Source: a virus. From it: a stretch of 27,026 nt of DNA. The first letter of the stretch is position 1. Each line of letters opens with the position of its first letter. The stretch lies in UHGV virus genome UHGV-0327176. The stretch is one strand, 5' to 3'. Of the stretch, positions 1,075 to 23,940 are shown piece after piece. The notes under the pieces are model-generated. The model was not told where the DNA came from and ran no database searches. It worked only from the letters and a program-made list of their open reading frames with translations. The position numbers were made by a program, and so were the translations under genes.

Positions 1075-1717
1075 TGGCAGCAAATACCGAAATATTTGGG
1101 TAGTTGGCGATCTGCACGGATGCTACACGAACCTGATGAAAAAACTGGAGACGATAGGATTCGACACCAAAAAAGACCTGCTTATCTCGGTTGGCGATTT
1201 GGTCGATCGCGGTACAGAGAACGTTGAATGCCTGGAATTAATCACATTCCCCTGGTTCAGAGCTGTACGTGGAAACCATGAGCAAATGATGATTGATGGC
1301 TTATCAGAGCGTGGAAACGTCAATCACTGGCTGCTTAATGGCGGTGGCTGGTTCTTTAATCTCGACTACGACAAAGAAATTCTGGCTAAAGCTCTTGCCC
1401 ATAAAGCAGATGAACTTCCGTTAATCATCGAACTGGTGAGCAAAGATAAAAAATATGTCATCTGCCACGCCGATTATCCTTGTGACGAATACGAATTTGG
1501 AAAGCCAGTTGATCATCAGCAGGTAATCTGGAACCGCGAACGAATCAGCAACTCACAAGACGGGATCGTGAAAGAAATTAAAGGCGCGGACACGTTCATC
1601 TTTGGTCATACGCCAGCAGTGAAACCACTCAAGTTTGCCAACCAGATGTATATAGATACCGGCGCAGTGTTCTGCGGAAACCTCACATTGATTCAGGTAC
1701 AGGGAGAAGGCGCATGA
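1052..1717 (+). CDS. ninI: NinI Ser/Thr protein phosphatase (lambda PPase type)
   Basis: Metallophosphatase motifs GDLHG, GDLVDRG and GNHE are present. The sequence from [23 protein letters not shown] matches lambda phosphatase (221 aa). I chose the ATG at 1052; the ORF track starts at a GTG at 1043. Confidence 0.9.
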
Positions 1718-2337
1718 GACTCGAAAGCGTAGCTAAATTTCATTCGCCAAAAAGCCCGATGATGAGCGACTCACCACGGGCTACGGCTTCTGACTCTCTT
1801 TCCGGTACTGATGTGATGGCTGCTATGGGGATGGCGCAATCACAAGCCGGATTCGGAATGGCTGCATTCTGTGGTAAGCACGAACTCAGCCAGAACGACA
1901 AACAAAAGGCTATCAACTATCTGATGCAATTTGCACACAAGGTATCGGGGAAATACCGTGGTGTGGCAAAGCTCGAAGGAAATACTAAGGCAAAGGTACT
2001 GCAAGTGCTCGCAACATTCGCTTATGCGGATTATTGCCGTAGTGCCGCGACGCCGGGCGCAAGATGCAGAGATTGCCACGGTACAGGTCGGGCGGTTGAT
2101 ATAGCAAAAACAGAGCAGTGGGGGAGAGTTGTTGAGAAAGAGTGCGGAAGATGTAAAGGCGTCGGTTATTCAAGGATGCCTGCAAGCGCAGCATATCGCG
2201 CTGTGACGATGCTAATCCCAAATCTTACCCAACCCACCTGGTCACGCACTGTTAAGCCGCTGTATGACGCTCTGGTGGTGCAATGCCACAAAGAAGAGTC
2301 AATCGCAGACAACATTTTGAATGCGGTCACACGTTAG
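1714..2337 (+). CDS. Q: Late-gene antiterminator Q
   Basis: 207 aa [34 protein letters not shown]..., recalled as essentially lambda Q, including the zinc-binding CRDCHGTGR...CGRCKG region. Followed by a pR'-like promoter. Confidence 0.95.
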
Positions 2338-2379: not shown

Positions 2380-2408
2380 TTGACTTTTTGAATAAAGTTG
2401 GGTAAATT
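2380..2408 (+). promoter_or_regulatory. Late promoter pR' (-35 TTGACT, 17-bp spacer, -10 TAAATT) with adjacent qut region
   Basis: TTGACT at 2380-2385 and TAAATT at 2403-2408, immediately downstream of Q. The flanking sequence agrees with my memory of lambda pR'. Confidence 0.6.
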
Positions 2409-2611: not shown

Positions 2612-2686
2612 GGGTCAGTCGTATAAAGGTAATTACGGAAGGCTGTTAACCTTCTTATCGTGGTTCGAGTCCACGCTGTCCCGCCA
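2612..2686 (+). tRNA. tRNA, predicted anticodon GTT (Asn)
   Basis: Hand-folded cloverleaf: acceptor gggtcag/ctgtccc (6 of 7 bp), perfect anticodon stem gaagg/ccttc, loop ctgttaa with U33 and anticodon GTT, perfect T-stem cgtgg/ccacg, T-loop ttcgagt, encoded 3' CCA. The D-stem is weak (3 bp). Confidence 0.7.
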
Positions 2687-2691
2687 AACAT

Positions 2692-2767
2692 GCTGGTTTA
2701 GCTCCAATGGTAGAGCAGTCGCCTTGTAAGCGAATGGGTAGCGGTTCAAGTCCGTTAACCAGCACCA
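2692..2767 (+). tRNA. tRNA, predicted anticodon TGT (Thr)
   Basis: Hand-folded cloverleaf: perfect 7-bp acceptor gctggtt/aaccagc, D-stem gctc/gagc, D-loop with GG, anticodon loop cttgtaa (anticodon TGT), T-stem agcgg/ccgtt, T-loop ttcaagt, discriminator A, encoded CCA. Confidence 0.8.
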
Positions 2768-3009: not shown

Positions 3010-3333
3010 ATGAAGATGCCAGAAAAACATGACCTGTTAGCCGCCATTCTCGCGGCAAAGGAACAAGGCATCGGGGCAATCCTTGCGTTTGCAATGGCGT
3101 ACCTTCGCGGCAGATATAATGGCGGTGCGTTTACAAAAACAGTAATCGACGCAACGATGTGCGCCATTATCGCCTGGTTCATTCGTGACCTTCTCGACTT
3201 CGCCGGACTAAGTAGCAATCTCGCTTATATAACGAGCGTGTTCATCGGCTACATCGGTACTGACTCGATTGGTTCGCTTATCAAACGCTTCGCTGCTAAA
3301 AAAGCCGGAGTAGAAGATGGTGGAAATCAATAA
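3010..3333 (+). CDS. S: Holin S (class I, dual-start S107/S105)
   Basis: 107 aa ORF beginning MKMPEKHD (Met1-Lys2-Met3 dual start), with three hydrophobic segments. Recalled as near-identical to lambda S. The upstream sequence ...caaatccccttattgggg... also matches lambda. Confidence 0.95.
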
Positions 3334-3793
3334 TCAACGTAAGGCGTTCCTCGATATGCTGGCGTGGTCAGAGGGAACTGATAACGGACGTCAGAAAACC
3401 AGAAATCATGGTTATGACGTCATTGTAGGAGGAGAGCTATTCACTGATTACTCCGATCACCCTCGCAAACTTGTCGCGCTAAACCCCAAACTCAAATCAA
3501 CAGCCGCCGGACGTTACCAGCTTCTTTCACGTTGGTGGGATGCCTACCGTAAGCAGCTTGGCCTGAAAGACTTCTCCCCCAAAAGCCAGGACGCTGTGGC
3601 ACTGCAACAGATTAAAGAGCGTGGCGCTTTACCAATGATTGATCGCGGTGATATTCGTCAGGCAATTGACCGTTGCAGCAATATCTGGGCTTCACTTCCG
3701 GGCGCTGGTTATGGTCAGTTCGAGCATAAGGCTGACAGCCTGATTGCAAAATTCAAAGAGGCTGGCGGAACGGTCAGAGAGATTGAGGTATGA
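3317..3793 (+). CDS. R: Endolysin R (lytic transglycosylase)
   Basis: 158 aa [42 protein letters not shown]..., recalled as lambda R. It overlaps the end of S as in lambda. Confidence 0.95.
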
Positions 3794-4227
3794 GCAGAGT
3801 AACCGCGATTATCTCCGCTCTGGTTATTTGCATCATCGTCTGCCTGTCATGGGCTGTTAATCATTACCGTGATAACGCCATCGCCTATAAAGAACAGCGC
3901 GATAAAGCCACGTCCATCATCGCTGACATGCAGAAGCGTCAACATGATGTAGCAGAACTCGACGCCAGATACACAAAGGAGCTTGCTGATGCTAACGCGA
4001 CTATCGAAAGTCTTCGTGCTGATGTTTCTGCTGGTCGTAAGCGCCTGCAAGTCGCCGCCACCTGTGCAAAGTCAACGACCGGAGCCAGCAGCATGGGCGA
4101 TGGAGAAAGCCCAGGACTTACAGCAGATGCTGAACTCAATTATTACCGTCTCCGAAGTGGAATCGACAGGATAACCGCGCAGGTTAACTACCTGCAGGAG
4201 TACATCAGGACTCAGTGCCTGAAATAA
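3790..4227 (+). CDS. Rz: Spanin inner-membrane subunit Rz (i-spanin)
   Basis: 145 aa ORF with an N-terminal transmembrane segment ([17 protein letters not shown]) and a coiled-coil periplasmic region. Lambda-Rz-like N-terminus, directly downstream of R. Confidence 0.85.
3983..4174 (+). CDS. Rz1: Spanin outer-membrane lipoprotein Rz1 (o-spanin), embedded in Rz in the +1 frame
   Basis: 63 aa ORF wholly inside Rz in another frame, with a signal peptide and lipobox-like LVVSAC followed by a proline-rich segment ([12 protein letters not shown]). This is the classic embedded Rz/Rz1 arrangement. Confidence 0.7.
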
Positions 4228-17563: not shown

Positions 17564-17751
17564 CCTTCAATAGCCTGCCGGGCGGTGAAGATTTTATTCT
17601 TCGTCCGGCGCTTGCCTTCCATATTGACCAGAAAGACCTTAACAGCGGTGCGGTAGATCTTTGCCGCATCGCGCTTCTCAATGACTACCTCGACATGCGC
17701 GAGGATAACGACGCCCGGGTAGATAAATGGAGAGCGGCCAATGAGCGGTAA
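17138..17751 (+). CDS. Tail assembly chaperone, predicted -1 frameshift fusion (GT-like product)
   Basis: Slippery heptamer A_AAT_TTT at 17509-17515 in the zero frame (codons gga|aat|ttt, followed by a TTTTTT run). The -1 frame is open for 78 codons (17515-17748) and stops at TAA 17749-17751, overlapping the tape measure ATG at 17741. Hand-translated with no internal stops. Confidence 0.55.
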
Positions 17752-19753
17752 CGCAGATACGATTAAAGATTTCCTTGTTTCGCTGGGATTCGATATCGAT
17801 CAGGCTGGCGCTAATAAGTTTGAAGCCGTGCTGAAAGGTGTTACCGCGAACGTTCTGAAGGTCGGCGCGGTGGTGGAAGGCGCAGCGCTGAGCATTGTCG
17901 GATTTACCACCCAGATCGCGAATGGTCTGGATAAAATTTACTGGGCATCCCAGCGGACGGGGGCCAGCGTCCAGGGCATCAAAGCGCTGGGCTATGCCGC
18001 ATCGCAAACCGGTGCCAGCGCCGAGTCGGCTATGTCCTCCCTCGAAGGGCTGGCGGGGTTCATGCGTAGCAATCCGGGGGCGGAAGGCTTCCTGAACCGC
18101 CTGGGTGTCCAGACCCGTGATGCCAGCGGAAAGATGCGTGATACTGCGGCCATCTTTACTGGCGTTGGGCAAAAGCTCAACAACATGCCGTATTACCGCG
18201 CGAAGCAATACGCGCAGATGCTTGGCATCGATGAAAACACGCTGATGGCGATGCGGCGCGGCATGAATGGCTTTACCGCCGATTACCAGTCGATGCTGCA
18301 AAAGACAAGGTTCAACGCTGATAAAGCGGCTGTTCAGTCCAACAAATTCATGACGTCCATGCGCGGGCTTACGTCGCTGTTCGGCATCATGCGGGACAAG
18401 ATCGGCTCAAACCTCGCTGGTGGCCTGGCTGGTTCGCTGGACAGCCTGCGGCGGCGCATCCTCGACAATTTCCCGAAGATTGAAGAGACGCTTACCAGAG
18501 TTATTAACGGCGTGATCTGGCTTGCGAACGCATTCACGAGAATGGCGTGGCGGCTGATACAGGGCGCTGGCTCTGTCATCGACTGGTGGAAGCGTCTTGA
18601 CGATGGCAGTAAAAATCTGCTGAAAATATTCGGTGCTCTACTTGTCGCATGGCGTCTGCTTAATTCTGCGTTCCTGAAATCCCCGATTGGAATTATCACC
18701 ACGCTGATTCTGGCGATCGGATTACTCTATGACGATTACCAGACGTGGAAAGAGGGCGGAAAAAGCCTGATTGACTGGAGCAAGTGGGAACCAGCAATAG
18801 AAAAGGCGAAAAAGGCAATTATCTGGCTGCGAGATAAGCTGTTGGAGCTAAAAGATTCTGTCGGTGGGTGGCAGAACTCACTGGAAATTTTGGCTACCTT
18901 CATTGCAGGGGTATGGTTAAGCAAAATAACCTCTGCATTTGCTAAGTTAGCCGGAATACCTATGCCGCCATGGCTGAAGCTGTGGGCTATTTATGCCGGG
19001 TATCTGGTGGACGACAGGCATAATATTAAAGAAAGCGCTAAATCATCATGGGACTACACCAAAGGAAACATCGGAGATGCGCTCCGCTGGATGGGGTTTA
19101 ATACCGATTTTGGCCGCAATCCCAATACCGTGTATGGCGCGAATATTCAGTCAGATATTCCAGGCGCTGAACCGGAGCAATACGCCCAGTCAGTGAAGCG
19201 CCCACAAGCCACAGCCCAGGGTAAGGTATTGCTCGACTGGATGGGGCCAATGTTCAATAAACTGGAGTCGCTTTATCAGCTGCCAGCTGGCCTGTTGAAA
19301 AGCGTGGCGATCACCGAGTCGGGTGGTAACCAGTTCGCCATATCCGGCGCAGGCGCGAAAGGACTGTTTCAGTTTATGGATGGCACGGCGCGCGACATGG
19401 GCCTGCGTGGGAATGATGTATTCGACCCGGAAAAGTCAGCTCAGGCAGCCGCTAAGTACCTCAGCCAGCTGTTGCGGCAGAACGGCGGAGACCTTAGCAA
19501 AGCACTGGCATCATATAACTGGGGGATCGGGAATGTTAAGCGTTATGGAATGGGGCTAATGCCGCAGGAAACGCGCAATTACATTCCGAAAGTAATGAGC
19601 AATATGCCCACCAGCGCCCCGGTGATTCAGCAGGAAACGAACATTAACATCCACGGCGTTTCCGATCCTCGCGAAGCTGCCCGTTTGACTGTTGACCGTC
19701 AAAAGGGCGTGAATTCACAGTTAACCCAGCAACTCCCCGCAGGACCGAGATAA
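17741..19753 (+). CDS. Tape measure protein with a C-terminal lytic transglycosylase (SLT) motif
   Basis: 670 aa ORF after the chaperone, with hydrophobic segments in the middle (IFGALLVAWRLL, IITTLILAIGLLY). The segment ITESGGNQFAISGAGAKGLFQFMDGTARDMGL matches the catalytic-Glu-Ser lytic transglycosylase motif. Confidence 0.75.
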   Translation: MSGNADTIKDFLVSLGFDIDQAGANKFEAVLKGVTANVLKVGAVVEGAALSIVGFTTQIANGLDKIYWASQRTGASVQGIKALGYAASQTGASAESAMSSLEGLAGFMRSNPGAEGFLNRLGVQTRDASGKMRDTAAIFTGVGQKLNNMPYYRAKQYAQMLGIDENTLMAMRRGMNGFTADYQSMLQKTRFNADKAAVQSNKFMTSMRGLTSLFGIMRDKIGSNLAGGLAGSLDSLRRRILDNFPKIEETLTRVINGVIWLANAFTRMAWRLIQGAGSVIDWWKRLDDGSKNLLKIFGALLVAWRLLNSAFLKSPIGIITTLILAIGLLYDDYQTWKEGGKSLIDWSKWEPAIEKAKKAIIWLRDKLLELKDSVGGWQNSLEILATFIAGVWLSKITSAFAKLAGIPMPPWLKLWAIYAGYLVDDRHNIKESAKSSWDYTKGNIGDALRWMGFNTDFGRNPNTVYGANIQSDIPGAEPEQYAQSVKRPQATAQGKVLLDWMGPMFNKLESLYQLPAGLLKSVAITESGGNQFAISGAGAKGLFQFMDGTARDMGLRGNDVFDPEKSAQAAAKYLSQLLRQNGGDLSKALASYNWGIGNVKRYGMGLMPQETRNYIPKVMSNMPTSAPVIQQETNINIHGVSDPREAARLTVDRQKGVNSQLTQQLPAGPR

Positions 19754-20664: not shown

Positions 20665-21729
20665 ATGTCTCTTAACTGGATGCGCCATTTTGAGCTGCAA
20701 CTGTTGGACCAGAACGGGCAGGGCGTTTCCCTGTCTGACTTTAAGGTCACGTTCCAGATCGAGTGGGCAGACACACGCTGGCCGCGCGTGGCGAACGTGA
20801 AAATTTACAACCTTTCGACCGATACCACGAACAAGATACTGGGGCAGGAGTTTGCCAAAATTCGCATCATTGCCGGGTATGACGGTATAGCGCCGGATGT
20901 TGATGCGAGCCAGGTCGGCGTCGCCCGAGAGATTTCACCAGACCAGATAGGGCAGGTGAACGGTCAGAACTACGGCCTGATTTTTGACGGTGATATTCGC
21001 TTTACCGTAACCGGGAAGGACAACATTACCGATTCCTGGGTGTTGATTCAGGCTATTGGAGATCATGAAGCGTTCCTCTACGCGACTACCATCACTACGC
21101 TTGCCGCTGGCTATACCGTTGCGGATCTGCACCGGGCGACGATGCAGGATTTCAACGTGTTCGGCGTGACACAGGGCATTACCGGCGATTTTCCTGATAC
21201 CGTGTTTCCTCGTGGCCGCGCGATTTACTCATCCACTCGTAACGTGATGGATAATATTGCAGCGCAGTGCAAAGCGACATGGCAGCTGGTGGATGGTCAG
21301 GTCCAGATGGTGCCGGAGGATAAATATATTCACGAAGCCATTGTGTTGAATGCCAATACTGGCCTGATTGGTATGCCGCAACAGACGATGGGCGGCGGCG
21401 TAAACGTGCGGTGCCTGATAAACCCAAACATCCGCATTAATGGTCTTATCCAGCTCGATCAGGCTTCGGTGTACCGCGCGTCGCTCGGTAATAGCGAAAT
21501 CGCACAGTCGCCCGGGCGTATCACCGAAACTGAAGAGAATGGCAACCGTGTGCTGACCGGTACGACGTCACAGGCTGCCAGCATTGCGACGGATGGCGTT
21601 TATATCGTCAAAGCTATCGACTATACTGGCGACACCAGAGGTCAGGCGTGGTACATGGATTTGATGTGCTTTGCGCGTGGCAGTCGTGAATTATATAGTC
21701 AGTCGACGCTCCAAAAAGTACAGGTGTGA
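20665..21729 (+). CDS. Putative baseplate hub protein (P2 gpD / Mu P-like position)
   Basis: 354 aa ORF upstream of the spike-like gene in a P2/Mu-like baseplate gene order. Family inferred from order and size only. Confidence 0.5.
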   Translation: MSLNWMRHFELQLLDQNGQGVSLSDFKVTFQIEWADTRWPRVANVKIYNLSTDTTNKILGQEFAKIRIIAGYDGIAPDVDASQVGVAREISPDQIGQVNGQNYGLIFDGDIRFTVTGKDNITDSWVLIQAIGDHEAFLYATTITTLAAGYTVADLHRATMQDFNVFGVTQGITGDFPDTVFPRGRAIYSSTRNVMDNIAAQCKATWQLVDGQVQMVPEDKYIHEAIVLNANTGLIGMPQQTMGGGVNVRCLINPNIRINGLIQLDQASVYRASLGNSEIAQSPGRITETEENGNRVLTGTTSQAASIATDGVYIVKAIDYTGDTRGQAWYMDLMCFARGSRELYSQSTLQKVQV

Positions 21730-21730
21730 T

Positions 21731-22081
21731 ATGACAAAAATTAGGAATGTTATCTGCGGAGCCGTTCTTTCGTTGGTCGGAGCTTCAACTGCAATGGCTG
21801 ATACCCAATGCGGGCCATATCGCCTCACCGCAGGTAATGATGGTTTTATGCATATTAATGGTGTAAAGCCAGAAAACCAGAAAATGACCTTTCTGAAAGC
21901 CAAGGAAGATTATCAAAATCTCAAGATGGAATGGACGGTTGCAACTAATCAACCCGGCCGCTGGGTTGGGCTTGAGTACATCAAGCGCAACGGCAAAGCC
22001 ATTCTCAACGCACAGTGGCTGCAAGCCAGCATGGATTCGCCGCGTCAGTATGCAACATACGACTGCCGAAAAGTAAAATAG
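21731..22081 (+). CDS. Moron: secreted (periplasmic) protein with a Sec signal peptide, unknown function
   Basis: ATG at 21731, 1 nt after the hub stop, with AGGTG upstream. The N-terminus MTKIRNVICGAVLSLVGASTAMA/DTQCG is a typical signal peptide with an AxA cleavage site. Two Cys in the mature part. GC content is lower than the flanking tail genes. Stop TAG at 22079-22081 runs into a GC hairpin. Confidence 0.6.
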   Translation: MTKIRNVICGAVLSLVGASTAMADTQCGPYRLTAGNDGFMHINGVKPENQKMTFLKAKEDYQNLKMEWTVATNQPGRWVGLEYIKRNGKAILNAQWLQASMDSPRQYATYDCRKVK

Positions 22082-22099
22082 CCCGCCAGATAGGCGGGC
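22081..22099. terminator. Shared hairpin between the convergent moron genes (intrinsic terminator for the - strand gene)
   Basis: Perfect 7-bp stem gcccgcc / ggcgggc with loop agata. On the - strand it is followed by TATTTTACTTTT; on the + strand it is preceded by an A-rich run. Confidence 0.55.
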
Positions 22100-22104
22100 A
22101 TGCG

Positions 22105-22395
22105 TCAAAAATATTGAGCTTTAATTATAATAAACACAATAATTACGAACAGGATGTTTCTAATTATTTTTTGCTTATGAGTAAGTTGTTTTTTTTCTGT
22201 CGATTTCCCGGGAGAGTAAAGGTTAGTGGTATGCGACAGCCCCGTGCCGGGAAGGCCATTTGTCATCTTTACGCCTTTTTTTCCGATGTTAATGGTGGAA
22301 CCTTTACCACCAATTGAAGTGCTTACTCCGCTTTTACTAATGTTGATCGCGAGTCCGGGCGCAATCCGGATTCTTTTACGAAATCTAAATCCCAT
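22105..22395 (-). CDS. Moron: small membrane-anchored protein, N-terminal domain recalled as DUF4236-like
   Basis: The only standalone - strand ORF in the window. Strong ribosome-binding site AGGAG 6 nt before the ATG (read on the - strand). The N-terminus MGFRFRKRIRIAPGLAINISKSGVSTSIGGKGSTINIGKKG...GLPGTGLS matches my recollection of the DUF4236 signature. C-terminal hydrophobic helix IIRNILFVIIVFIII. Very AT-rich 3' half. Confidence 0.65.
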   Translation of the reverse strand: MGFRFRKRIRIAPGLAINISKSGVSTSIGGKGSTINIGKKGVKMTNGLPGTGLSHTTNLYSPGKSTEKKQLTHKQKIIRNILFVIIVFIIIKAQYF

Positions 22396-22582
22396 TTGTT
22401 ACTCCTGTAGTCAATAATGCGATGGTGCAGGTCCACTCTATGGCGGCTTCATGGCTGAAATTGATTTTCAATGCTTACTTGTTGCAAACATATCCTAATA
22501 CACCTTGTGAATGTGTGCCATTGCAGCGGAAAAGCCTTACTTCACACTGATGTAGCTTAGTTACTAAGAGATAATTGATACC

Positions 22583-22607
22583 AAACCAGCTTCGGCTGGT
22601 TTTTTTA
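22583..22607 (+). terminator. Intrinsic terminator at the right edge of the moron island
   Basis: Stem accagc / gctggt (22585-22600) with loop ttcg, followed by a T-run of 6-7, about 10 nt upstream of the spike gene ATG. Confidence 0.55.
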
Positions 22608-22617
22608 TGGGGGTTTT

Positions 22618-23358
22618 ATGCCAATTCCAACTCAATCACAGATCGGGGGTGAGCAGCAGACCGCGCAGGCCATTGCCGATTCGGTGTCTACCCAGATGCG
22701 CGTAGCGATGCCCGGCATCATTCAGTCGTTCGATCCTGACACTGTTACCTGCACAGTAGAGGTAGCGCTTCGCGGTATTGTTGGCGATGGCTCCACCGAA
22801 TTAAAACCGCTGGTGGATGTGCCGGTTATCTTCCCGCGCGGCGGCGGTTGCACGCTGACCTTTCCGGTAAAAGAAGGCGACGAGTGCCTGCTGATCTTTG
22901 CCGACCGTTGCATCGATTTCTGGTGGCAGAGCGGCGGCGTTCAGGAGACCGTCGATCCGCGACAGCATGACTTATCTGATGCGTTCGCCATCGTTGGCCC
23001 GCAGTCGCAAGCACAGAAAATCAGCGGTATCAGTACCAGCGCCGCGCAGCTGCGAACCGATGATGGTGCGGCGTTCGTAGAGGTTGCCGCAGGACATAAC
23101 ATCACCGTTCAAACACCGGGCCAGCTCACGGCTACGGCTGAAGGTGGAACGACAATCACATCCCCGACTATCACGCTGAACGGCAACGTAACGATTAATG
23201 GCAATCTGTCTCAGGGAATGGGCGAAAGTGGCGGTACTGCGACGATGCTTGGGCCGGTGACGGTGACTAACGATGTGAAGGCTGGAGGAAAGAGCCTCAT
23301 CCAGCATACCCATGGCGGTGTGCAGAATGGCAGCGGGAATACTACCGCGCCTAATTAA
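22618..23358 (+). CDS. Baseplate spike protein (gpV / Mu gp45-like)
   Basis: 246 aa ORF with a Gly/Thr-rich C-terminal region typical of spike beta-helix proteins, and HTHGG near the C-terminus reminiscent of the His-containing apex motif. Lies upstream of W-, J- and I-like genes. Confidence 0.65.
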   Translation: MPIPTQSQIGGEQQTAQAIADSVSTQMRVAMPGIIQSFDPDTVTCTVEVALRGIVGDGSTELKPLVDVPVIFPRGGGCTLTFPVKEGDECLLIFADRCIDFWWQSGGVQETVDPRQHDLSDAFAIVGPQSQAQKISGISTSAAQLRTDDGAAFVEVAAGHNITVQTPGQLTATAEGGTTITSPTITLNGNVTINGNLSQGMGESGGTATMLGPVTVTNDVKAGGKSLIQHTHGGVQNGSGNTTAPN

Positions 23359-23377
23359 AAACTACCAAACAGACAAA

Positions 23378-23410
23378 AGCCCCGGGTGCGCTAACACTTC
23401 GGGGCTTTTT
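23378..23410 (+). terminator. Candidate intrinsic terminator after the spike gene
   Basis: Stem agccccg (23378-23384) / cggggct (23400-23406) with a 15-nt loop, followed by TTTTT. Confidence 0.45.
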
Positions 23411-23484
23411 ACTTTCTGCACCTTGAGGATAGCAAGGGAGAATATGTGATTAATTTTAGCAAACTGATACGGGAGTTGCGAGTC

Positions 23485-23583
23485 ATGGGCGAAAAACTAC
23501 CCAACTGGAAATTCTTCCTCATCTGGGCCGTGTTCTTTTTATTCGGTCTGTCAAGCGTTATTAGCGCTATACGCTGGTGGTGA
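23485..23583 (+). CDS. Small hydrophobic peptide (32 aa, single predicted transmembrane helix)
   Basis: Not in the ORF track (under 60 aa). ATG at 23485 preceded by GGGAG with a 9-nt spacer. Translates to MGEKLPNWKFFLIWAVFFLFGLSSVISAIRWW then TGA at 23581-23583, 3 nt before the next gene's ATG. Confidence 0.4.
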   Translation: MGEKLPNWKFFLIWAVFFLFGLSSVISAIRWW

Positions 23584-23586
23584 TTT

Positions 23587-23940
23587 ATGCGATACAGACG
23601 TGAAGACACCGACGGTGATTACACTTTCGGGCAGGGTGACGATACTTTCCTTATCGACAGTCCGGAATGTGTCGCCCAGGCAGTAAAAACCCGCTTCGAG
23701 CTGTGGCGCGGTCAGTGGTTTCTCGATCTGACGGAAGGCACGCCGTATGTTCAGTCGGTGCTTGGTAAACAGCGATCTGACGTCTACATCCTGGCTATAC
23801 GTGAACGCATACAGGACACACCGGGCGTTCTGTCGATTCTTTCCTTCGATACCAATTATGACGGCACCAGCCGTCGCGTCACCTTCACTTCCTCCATTGA
23901 CACAATCTACGGCCAGACGACTGTAACAAGCGAGGCATAA
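23587..23940 (+). CDS. Baseplate protein (gpW / gp25-like position)
   Basis: 117 aa ORF immediately upstream of the J-like gene (stop/start TAAATG). Called by size and order. Confidence 0.5.
   Translation: MRYRREDTDGDYTFGQGDDTFLIDSPECVAQAVKTRFELWRGQWFLDLTEGTPYVQSVLGKQRSDVYILAIRERIQDTPGVLSILSFDTNYDGTSRRVTFTSSIDTIYGQTTVTSEA

Follow-up and report, generated by a model that had tools for sequence, protein, structure and literature searches.

In phage HK97, the protein gp15 inserts in the inner membrane of the host and excludes superinfection, with a specificity that maps to the tail (Cumby et al. 2012, reviewed in PMC3594210), and Imm of phage T4 binds the tape measure protein and blocks the genome translocation of contractile-tailed phage (bioRxiv 10.64898/2026.03.06.709160). 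SNIPE is likewise membrane-bound and associates with the tape measure of an incoming phage, while its domain DUF4041, which is positively charged, binds DNA and probably also the complex of the tape measure (PMC13190303); at the cell surface, Cor of phi80 and N15 is an exclusion lipoprotein that blocks the receptor (PMC3594210). Morons have been described with their own promoter and terminator, and lom of lambda, a classical moron of the tail region, acts on host traits (PMC3594210); the taiEcA gene of phi80 is expressed in the lysogen from the opposite strand of the Q-controlled late operon, and Q, once expressed, reduces this expression (PMC11364771). The present analysis concerns a DUF4236 gene on the minus strand of the virus genome UHGV-0327176, which was studied as one stretch of 27,026 nucleotides (nt; hereafter, the window) and in which the gene lies reversed among tail genes, between those for the baseplate hub and the central spike. 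The explanation that best covers the whole of the evidence, and which we advance tentatively, is that of an inner-membrane accessory protein expressed from the prophage, where it would most likely block superinfection at the step of DNA entry.

The reading frame predicted here on the opposite strand, with an ATG start and 96 codons, is on comparative grounds a real gene and not a chance open reading frame (ORF), because 8,801 cluster representatives (clusters at 50% identity) match its product at E ≤ 1e-3 and its ratio of nonsynonymous to synonymous substitution (dN/dS) is 0.06. The remaining minus-strand ORFs of at least 60 amino acids (aa) overlap plus-strand ORFs or tRNA genes, with one exception, a 66-aa ORF with a GTG start at 23409–23609 in a second small insert. 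The product of the DUF4236 gene begins with MGFRFRKRIRIAPG, contains GLPGTGLSH and ends in NILFVIIVFIIIKAQYF. Its strong ribosome-binding site (RBS), as claimed in the original prediction, was located as an AGGAG sequence enclosed in a TTGACTACAGGAG block, which is kept before the start codon in four lineages (Klebsiella and other E. coli). An intrinsic terminator belonging to the gene was likewise recovered, as a prediction from a hairpin and a T-rich tail: the stem-loop GCCCGCC-TATCT-GGCGGGC, followed by TATTTTACTTTT, starts 5 nt past the stop codon and abuts the stop codon of the upstream plus-strand gene, and its folding energy of −19 kcal/mol (z = −3.35) was equalled by none of 200 shuffled sequences. 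The AT-rich composition holds as well, with a G+C content of 38.8% in the coding sequence and 41.3% in the 513-bp cassette around it, against 52.2% in the window; the 513-bp stretch with the lowest G+C in all 27 kb begins at 22101.

The family name that the original prediction had given is confirmed by a match to Pfam PF14020 (DUF4236) at E = 1.8e-20, with 73.6 bits against a cut-off of 27 and with residues 3–55 lying on profile positions 1–54 of 55; RefSeq already names the gene "DUF4236 domain-containing protein". All columns that are invariant or near-invariant in an alignment of 137 sequences are present in the window protein, namely the M-G-F-R-F start, P13-G14, N18, K21-x-G23, G29, G32 and P49-G50-x-G52. 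An AlphaFold2 (AF2) model, for which 137 aligned homologues served as input, reached a mean predicted local distance difference test (pLDDT) score of 85.9 and places strands at residues 6–12, 15–20, 24–30, 33–38, 41–48 and 53–60, with glycine-rich turns between them, followed by a linker of lower confidence and a C-terminal helix. As modelled, residues 1–60 are a compact, strongly basic six-stranded beta-meander with a net charge of +10; read from the alternation of residues along the strands, one face of the sheet would hold aliphatic residues and the other the family-invariant polar residues N18, S25, S27, N36, T45 and S54. Charge is the most striking property of the protein: residues 1–79 contain 16 lysines or arginines against one aspartate or glutamate, and the 58-residue domain has a net charge of +6 to +12 in all 121 tail-anchored homologues examined. 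When the domain was compared with solved structures and annotated viral models, none resembled it beyond generic beta-meanders.

The pairing of a conserved N-terminal domain with a C-terminal membrane helix agrees with the hydropathy profile, in which residues 77–93 form a predicted hydrophobic segment (mean Kyte-Doolittle value of 2.57 over the 17-mer) with about three residues beyond, as well as with the helix of the AF2 model. Moreover, the architecture is family-wide, as the DUF4236 domain stands at the extreme N-terminus in almost all relatives and is followed by a hydrophobic segment in 122 of 135 cluster representatives, 72 of the 135 ending within 10 aa past that segment. In long forms the membrane segment is followed by SH3_3 domains (19 of 67 long forms) or by Excalibur domains; FtsK-gamma or WYL domains occur in relatives that have no such segment, and further long forms, in which a hydropathy scan detects no membrane segment, carry TPR repeats; no enzymatic domain was seen among the DUF4236 fusions. 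The window protein has no signal peptide, its domain beginning at residue 1. Because of the fusions, the absent signal peptide and the positive-inside rule, the domain is predicted to be cytoplasmic and the C-terminal tail to anchor it in the inner membrane. That the gene encodes a real tail-anchored DUF4236 protein is practically certain.

Set beside gp15 of HK97, the DUF4236 protein is likewise a small, single-pass protein of the inner membrane (by prediction here), encoded by an add-on cassette in a tail operon. An annotated terminator follows directly after the gp15 gene and a predicted one after the DUF4236 gene; the position of gp15 between the tail chaperone and tape measure genes is that of DUF4236 in two of the siphoviruses described below, and the soluble part of both proteins would be cytoplasmic by the positive-inside rule. 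In contrast, the membrane helix of gp15 is N-terminal and is joined to a helical tail (YebO family), whereas in the DUF4236 protein a beta domain comes first and the anchor is C-terminal; the gp15 gene is co-oriented with the tail genes, whereas the DUF4236 gene is reversed; and exclusion has been demonstrated for gp15, whereas for DUF4236 it is proposed here. As a candidate homologue gp15 was rejected, since BLASTP gave no alignment at E ≤ 100. T4 Imm and the DUF4236 protein are both small, phage-encoded inner-membrane proteins of about 9–10 kDa; Imm differs in being a four-helix protein with a periplasmic N-terminus, in coming from a virulent phage and in not being a DUF4236 protein. Homology to a characterised exclusion protein was found neither by BLASTP with HK97 gp15 nor by PADLOC, and the all-helical Imm stands against a beta domain here. 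The DUF4236 protein is therefore not filed as a member of the gp15, Imm or SieA type, and what is proposed is an analogous mode of action.

SNIPE combines DUF4041 with a GIY-YIG nuclease and usually an N-terminal membrane anchor, whereas the DUF4236 protein has no catalytic domain; SNIPE nevertheless sets a precedent for a membrane-bound protein whose positive surface meets the tape measure complex and DNA at injection. Llp of T5 is, like Cor, an exclusion lipoprotein, and the genes for both adjoin the matching tail gene. Cor and Llp are lipoproteins of the outer membrane that act on the receptor FhuA, whereas the DUF4236 protein would face the cytoplasm from the inner membrane; what the three would share is the principle that an exclusion gene is linked to the virion gene whose step is blocked.

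The position of the gene inside the tail cluster is upheld by Pfam and PHROG matches of tail and baseplate genes on both of its sides, and comparison with related baseplate regions, which were found in 67 of 5,426 complete E. coli genomes and in Citrobacter phage Omnitron, delimits a variable cargo slot. Homology with prophages that carry other cargo ends at about 22079, at the stop codon of a 116-aa gene, and restarts at 22595–22600, ahead of the spike RBS. Among the 30 records listed, the slot holds a minus-strand DUF4236 gene in 19, and at least seven other contents occur, one of them in Omnitron (L001), in backbones whose hubs are 88–99% identical to that of the window. This other cargo (L001, L003–L007) includes a Phd/Doc pair, a 371-aa lipoprotein (lipobox ISGC), a 185-aa protein with three transmembrane segments and its 70-aa partner, a 128-aa secreted protein, a 181-aa soluble protein and a 53-aa ORF; it gave no Pfam or PADLOC match, save weak matches of Doc to PADLOC candidate models. 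Because backbones with such similar hubs hold unrelated cargo, the content of the slot is dispensable for tail building, and the DUF4236 protein is, as judged from these replacements, not needed for virion assembly. Several of the other cargoes are envelope proteins, and the slot between hub and spike is a cargo hotspot.

Three of the features by which morons are recognised (Juhala et al. 2000; PMC3594210) are found at this locus: the gene is replaced in close relatives, its composition deviates and it has its own predicted terminator. It is very probable that the DUF4236 gene is non-structural accessory cargo, and the kind of element is an ordinary one, a moron in a tail operon. The 513-bp cassette is 96–100% identical in 17 E. 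coli genomes, among them strains I3 and WEM25 with 99.8–100%, and in 19 genomes its entire length aligns at 85% identity or more; where its conservation is highest, the surrounding 2.6-kb region taken as a whole is only 93–96% identical. Read from the alignments, cassette and flanks show the pattern of a unit exchanged by recombination.

With the cassette as query, a DUF4236 gene is detectable in 53 of the 5,426 complete E. coli genomes; in all that were inspected, it lies on the opposite strand in this very slot. The same slot and orientation recur in Klebsiella phage RCIP0034, in Hafnia paralvei prophages and in further E. coli and metagenomic contigs; the arrangement is also present in 44 of the best 80 viral-contig matches, as judged by the size and order of neighbouring ORFs, and a Serratia fonticola prophage (L029) was assigned to it from ORF sizes, Pfam family counts and tblastn. 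Across these same-slot loci, identity to the window proteins is 51–85% for DUF4236, 60–74% for the hub and 48–74% for the spike, so that, on these identities, the gene and the structural genes diverge at a similar pace. For the 85%-identical orthologue, with which the overall dN/dS given above was obtained, the value is 0.035 in the domain, and synonymous sites approach saturation; pairs at a greater distance have saturated synonymous sites, whereas only 13–19% of the nonsynonymous sites of the domain have changed in them. The comparison therefore describes DUF4236 as an old resident of the slot under purifying selection.

It is scarcely credible that the gene is a hitch-hiking remnant with no present function. 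The dispensable content of the slot would allow this, as would some Klebsiella alleles (P0027, P0028, P0033 and P0041), which keep the domain, are frameshifted after about residue 58 and have lost the membrane segment, one such allele being present on 15 contigs; in some lineages the gene thus appears, from these alleles, to be decaying. On the other side stand the low dN/dS with its nearly saturated synonymous sites, the retention of RBS, terminator and architecture across genera, and the cassette that is nearly identical among 17 E. coli genomes with more diverged flanks.

Beyond the slot, the closer tail-anchored relatives are all situated within tail modules of phages, and the tails concerned belong to at least six independent types. 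Homologues at prophage cargo positions, which the original prediction had made a test of itself, do occur. On the strand opposite to the tail genes, DUF4236 is found between tape measure and gpM in lambda-like prophages of Leclercia, and between tail tube and tape measure genes in Pantoea septica; co-oriented with the tail genes, it is found between gpK and gpI/gpJ in P. syringae, and between tail chaperone and tape measure genes in a metagenomic siphovirus and in C. difficile phiCD38-2. In Acinetobacter phage Ab11510-phi, a 1,643-aa gene taken as the tape measure gene follows about 1.5 kb downstream of it. Repressors and other regulators, integrases, antirepressors and tape measure proteins are most often encoded next to DUF4236 at 17 viral loci of greater diversity; prophage-expressed genes classically reside near those for repressors, integrases and antirepressors. 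The search for these loci was made with an 18-sequence domain alignment, as the 137-sequence alignment had no usable conserved stretch.

That the DUF4236 gene is expressed from the prophage is probable, because it occupies a variable cargo slot, has terminators with differing stems on both sides and a Q-like gene upstream, and has distant homologues near repressor, integrase and antirepressor genes. The reverse-strand terminator hairpin after the gene is present in all eight loci compared, with six different stems. Directly ahead of the spike gene, a plus-strand hairpin with a run of 6–8 T recurs in 12 of the 13 related loci, whatever the cargo or its strand, and its stem takes at least seven different sequences; the loci with an equivalent of it are L001, L003–L007, L020, L111, L112, L115 and L116. 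This second hairpin may end plus-strand transcripts of the lysogen or tune the dosage of the spike, and antitermination would be needed for read-through; with such a hairpin ahead of the spike, late transcription must be terminator-resistant, which fits the Q-like gene. The order of plus-strand hub, plus-strand 116-aa gene, minus-strand DUF4236 gene and plus-strand spike, downstream of the Q-like gene and a promoter-like site, also fits a non-contiguous operon, in which a reverse gene interrupts an operon. The window in this respect resembles phi80 with its taiEcA gene, since it too has a Q-like gene upstream of a reverse gene; TaiEcA differs as a 26-kDa protein that blocks tail assembly, its gene lies upstream of the packaging genes, and no counter-defence partner was identified for DUF4236. 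The 222-nt spacer on the 5' side of the gene is about 100 nt longer in the window lineage than in the Klebsiella and Hafnia lineages. A match to the small RNA isrK of Rfam at 22523–22605 on the plus strand was rejected, as it reached 23.4 bits against a gathering threshold of 50 (E = 0.003 in a 245-nt search), looks largely driven by the terminator and is probably due to chance.

In the proposed sequence of events, the repressed prophage would transcribe the gene at a low level, convergently to the silent late operon, and the gene's own terminator would halt the minus-strand transcript before it enters the hub and tape measure genes as antisense. The protein would insert in the inner membrane and disturb the step in which the incoming complex of tape measure and spike opens the membrane and passes the DNA, the tape measure protein being the kind of target proposed for such a block; two hydrophobic segments of the window's own tape measure protein could, by their sequence, insert in a membrane. 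Exclusion would thus operate as with HK97 gp15 and T4 Imm, through an unrelated fold that acts from the cytoplasmic face. After induction, late transcription modified by Q would read through the plus-strand hairpins and cross the DUF4236 gene in antisense, which should damp its expression. Exclusion by blocking entry is favoured as the function because the gene is repeatedly linked to membrane-opening components and because gp15, Imm and SNIPE offer precedents; argued in this way by analogy, it is possible, short of being probable. A wider and more doubtful proposal is that tail-anchored DUF4236 proteins are a large, so far unrecognised family of phage-encoded entry blockers on the cytoplasmic face, whose polybasic, single-layer beta-sheet would capture the tape measure channel or the leading end of the DNA; the gene would then travel with tape measure and hub genes, so that each phage's blocker would match its own injection device.

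Several observations weigh against prophage expression or against entry exclusion. For instance, no sigma-70-like site was found on the minus strand upstream of the gene at the tool threshold, and a relaxed promoter scan of nine loci returned weak candidates only, with no convincing sigma-70 consensus in any lineage; transcription could come from elsewhere or be lytic-only. Copies of DUF4236 are carried by large, apparently virulent phages, namely Klebsiella phages of about 140–150 kb and Brevundimonas jumbo phages of about 320–350 kb. In species-representative genomes, many tail-anchored homologues lie among housekeeping genes, with no general phage association, and because of this census of distant homologues the link to tail modules is claimed for the closer relatives only. 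A Vibrio diabolicus chromosome (L025, 6001–6504) encodes a protein of DUF4236, transmembrane and SH3 segments in an integron-like cassette array. Furthermore, the soluble DUF4236 domain would face the cytoplasm, whereas Imm contacts the tape measure through a loop between membrane helices; and the Phd/Doc toxin-antitoxin pair uses the same slot, so that position by itself need not point to exclusion. The divergence of DUF4236 correlates with that of the tape measure at a Spearman coefficient of 0.54, with hub and spike at 0.31–0.37 and with distal baseplate genes at about 0.1 (8 loci, non-independent pairs), so that DUF4236 follows the tape measure slightly more closely than it does the nearer genes; this co-divergence is a weak trend in a small sample. 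Functional annotation is equally silent: nine PHROG families match the N-terminus, including PHROGs 18347, 27590, 17982 and 8279, all of unknown function; PADLOC and NCBIfam searches with the protein gave no match; and the literature on DUF4236 (PF14020, IPR025330) yielded one incidental mention, with no function assigned. The PHROG profiles represent mostly longer proteins (133–441 positions) that have only the N-terminal domain in common with the DUF4236 protein, which is a full-length member of PF14020; neither PF14020 nor the PHROG families carry functional annotation. As a separate observation on the Vibrio locus, the array consists of small co-oriented genes with spacers of about 130 bp, typical of a chromosomal integron, and genes for a DUF4238 protein and for an NgoFVII-like restriction enzyme are found at a distance of a few cassettes.

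The homologues in apparently virulent large phages, together with the absent lysogenic promoter, would suit a protein that helps in the lytic cycle, be it by excluding secondary infection, by timing lysis or by aiding tail or baseplate assembly at the membrane, as would the co-orientation with tail genes in three siphovirus contexts and a divergence that tracks the structural genes. Such a role is decidedly improbable: in the phage family of the window the gene always runs opposite to the late operon with its own terminator, and it is replaced by unrelated cargo where baseplate proteins are 88–100% identical, so that assembly does not need it.

A factor of lysogenic conversion is rather unlikely, though less so. 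Here a membrane-tethered polybasic sheet would bind anionic lipid, nucleic acid or ribosomes and alter host physiology, such as stress tolerance or the envelope, for which the C-tail-anchored ElaB, YqjD and YgaM of E. coli, which tether stationary-phase ribosomes to the membrane, provide a comparison. The very large size of the family, with many tail-anchored members in ordinary chromosomal neighbourhoods, the conserved positive charge and the joining of the domain to generic anchoring or binding modules (transmembrane segments, SH3_3, TPR, FtsK-gamma and WYL), never to an enzyme, speak for it, and tail-region morons of the lom type act on host traits and not on phages. However, the confinement of the closer relatives to tail modules tells against it, and it would leave the tight linkage to tape measure, hub and spike genes unexplained.

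A membrane-damaging effector, which as the executor of abortive infection, as a toxin resembling type I or as a holin-like oligomer would depolarise the cell when triggered, is improbable. A small single-pass protein with a very hydrophobic helix could act in this way; one long relative has a weak match to Phage_holin_3_6 (E = 5e-5, below the cut-off), the Phd/Doc pair sits in the same slot of a sister prophage and a Doc-like toxin adjoins the homologue in L147. At the same time, a protein of 96 aa with a conserved, folded soluble domain of 58 aa does not resemble a type I toxin; neither a partner gene or antitoxin nor an antisense RNA family turned up, the Rfam matches being sub-threshold and apparently driven by terminators; holin, endolysin and spanin are encoded elsewhere in the window, and PADLOC gave no match. 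Moreover, a free-standing toxin would not be expected to last as a lone, constitutively placed gene across E. coli, Klebsiella and Hafnia lineages.

By its gene content, the window itself reads as the right-hand portion of the genome of a temperate phage that combines regulatory genes of the lambdoid kind with a simple contractile tail (a myovirus whose tail is of the E217/PhiTE type). Its regulatory genes encode NinG, a NinI-like phosphatase and the Q-like antiterminator; those for packaging and tail include an HNH endonuclease, the large terminase and the sheath, and those of the tail tip encode tape measure, Dit-like protein, plug, hub, spike, sheath initiator, Baseplate_J and a wedge protein. 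Regulatory, lysis, packaging and tail genes all lie on the plus strand, with the DUF4236 gene reversed among them, and this arrangement puts the gene inside a stretch that is almost certainly a single late operon, transcribed from the promoter-like site under Q-like control. The 116-aa protein on the left flank is 31% to 99% identical, or absent, among the backbones with closely similar hubs, and its gene is on this comparison probably part of the variable region, which would start at the end of the hub gene. The coordinates of these features are collected in Table 1.

Table 1. Positions of the DUF4236 gene, its cassette and other features of the window (residue numbers refer to the encoded protein).
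Feature	Position	Strand	Remarks
Q-like antiterminator	1714..2337	+	would allow late read-through of plus-strand hairpins
Promoter-like site TTGACT-17-TAAATT	2380..2408	+	just after Q; probable late promoter
tRNA-Asn(GTT)	2612-2686	+	3' of Q-like gene and promoter-like site, ahead of lysis cassette
tRNA-Thr(TGT)	2692-2767	+	3' of Q-like gene and promoter-like site, ahead of lysis cassette
Lysis cassette (holin, endolysin, spanin)	3010-4227	+	after the tRNA genes
Tape measure protein	17741..19753	+	SLT lytic transglycosylase domain, residues 504-604; hydrophobic segments 38-56 and 311-329
Baseplate hub	20665..21729	+	phrog_196; weak E217_GP41 match
Exported 116-aa protein, left flank	21731..22081	+	signal peptide MTKIRNVICGAVLSLVGASTAMA, followed by D; phrog_3443; RefSeq STY1065/STY2022 family
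Terminator-like hairpin and T-rich tail	22069..22099	-	stem 22099-22081, 7 G-C pairs
Variable cargo slot (moron cassette)	22082..22594		homology break points
DUF4236 gene, coding sequence	22105..22395	-	ATG start, 96 aa
C-terminal membrane helix	residues 73-95 = nt 22111-22179	-	AF2 model
Basic linker	residues 61-76	-	sequence
DUF4236 domain	residues 3-55 = nt 22231-22389	-	Pfam
5' non-coding region of cassette	22396..22582	-	where a promoter would have to lie
Shine-Dalgarno AGGAG	22402..22406	-	6 nt 5' of DUF4236 ATG
Hairpin AAACCAGC-TTCG-GCTGGTTT and T-run	22583..22609	+	directly ahead of spike RBS and ATG
Central membrane-puncturing spike, right flank	22618..23358	+	gp138_N and GpV Apex motif

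A second small insert occupies 23359–23586, between the spike and sheath-initiator genes, and contains a strong, terminator-like hairpin at 23375–23412 (−22 kcal/mol, z = −3.8), followed by an AAGGGAG RBS and a plus-strand ORF of 45 aa at 23446–23583 with a hydrophobic segment at its C-terminus (MINFSKLIRELRVMGEKLPNWKFFLIWAVFFLFGLSSVISAIRWW). A tblastn search with this ORF matched 53 phage records, 23 of the 53 at 60–82% identity, and most copies are unannotated; its carriers include Stx1- and Stx2-converting phages, H-19B, SPN3UB and SEN34. The whole insert is present in only 3 of the 5,426 E. coli genomes.

For a large uncharacterised family, the locus provides a concrete, testable setting: a single gene of 291 bp within a defined cassette, carried by an inducible family of E. 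coli prophages. The leads that it offers for the family are the tail-anchored polybasic architecture, the recurrent siting beside membrane-breaching or lysogeny genes and a terminator-bracketed hotspot between hub and spike. Should exclusion fail as an explanation, the gene would still be a clean example of a long-lived reverse moron. If exclusion holds, the repertoire of entry blockers would be wider, with relevance for the prediction of host range for phage therapy in E. coli and Klebsiella; were the wider proposal on tail-anchored DUF4236 proteins true, superinfection exclusion would gain a fold and a topology that are both new to it, and a domain that occurs in thousands of protein clusters from bacteria and phages would acquire a function.

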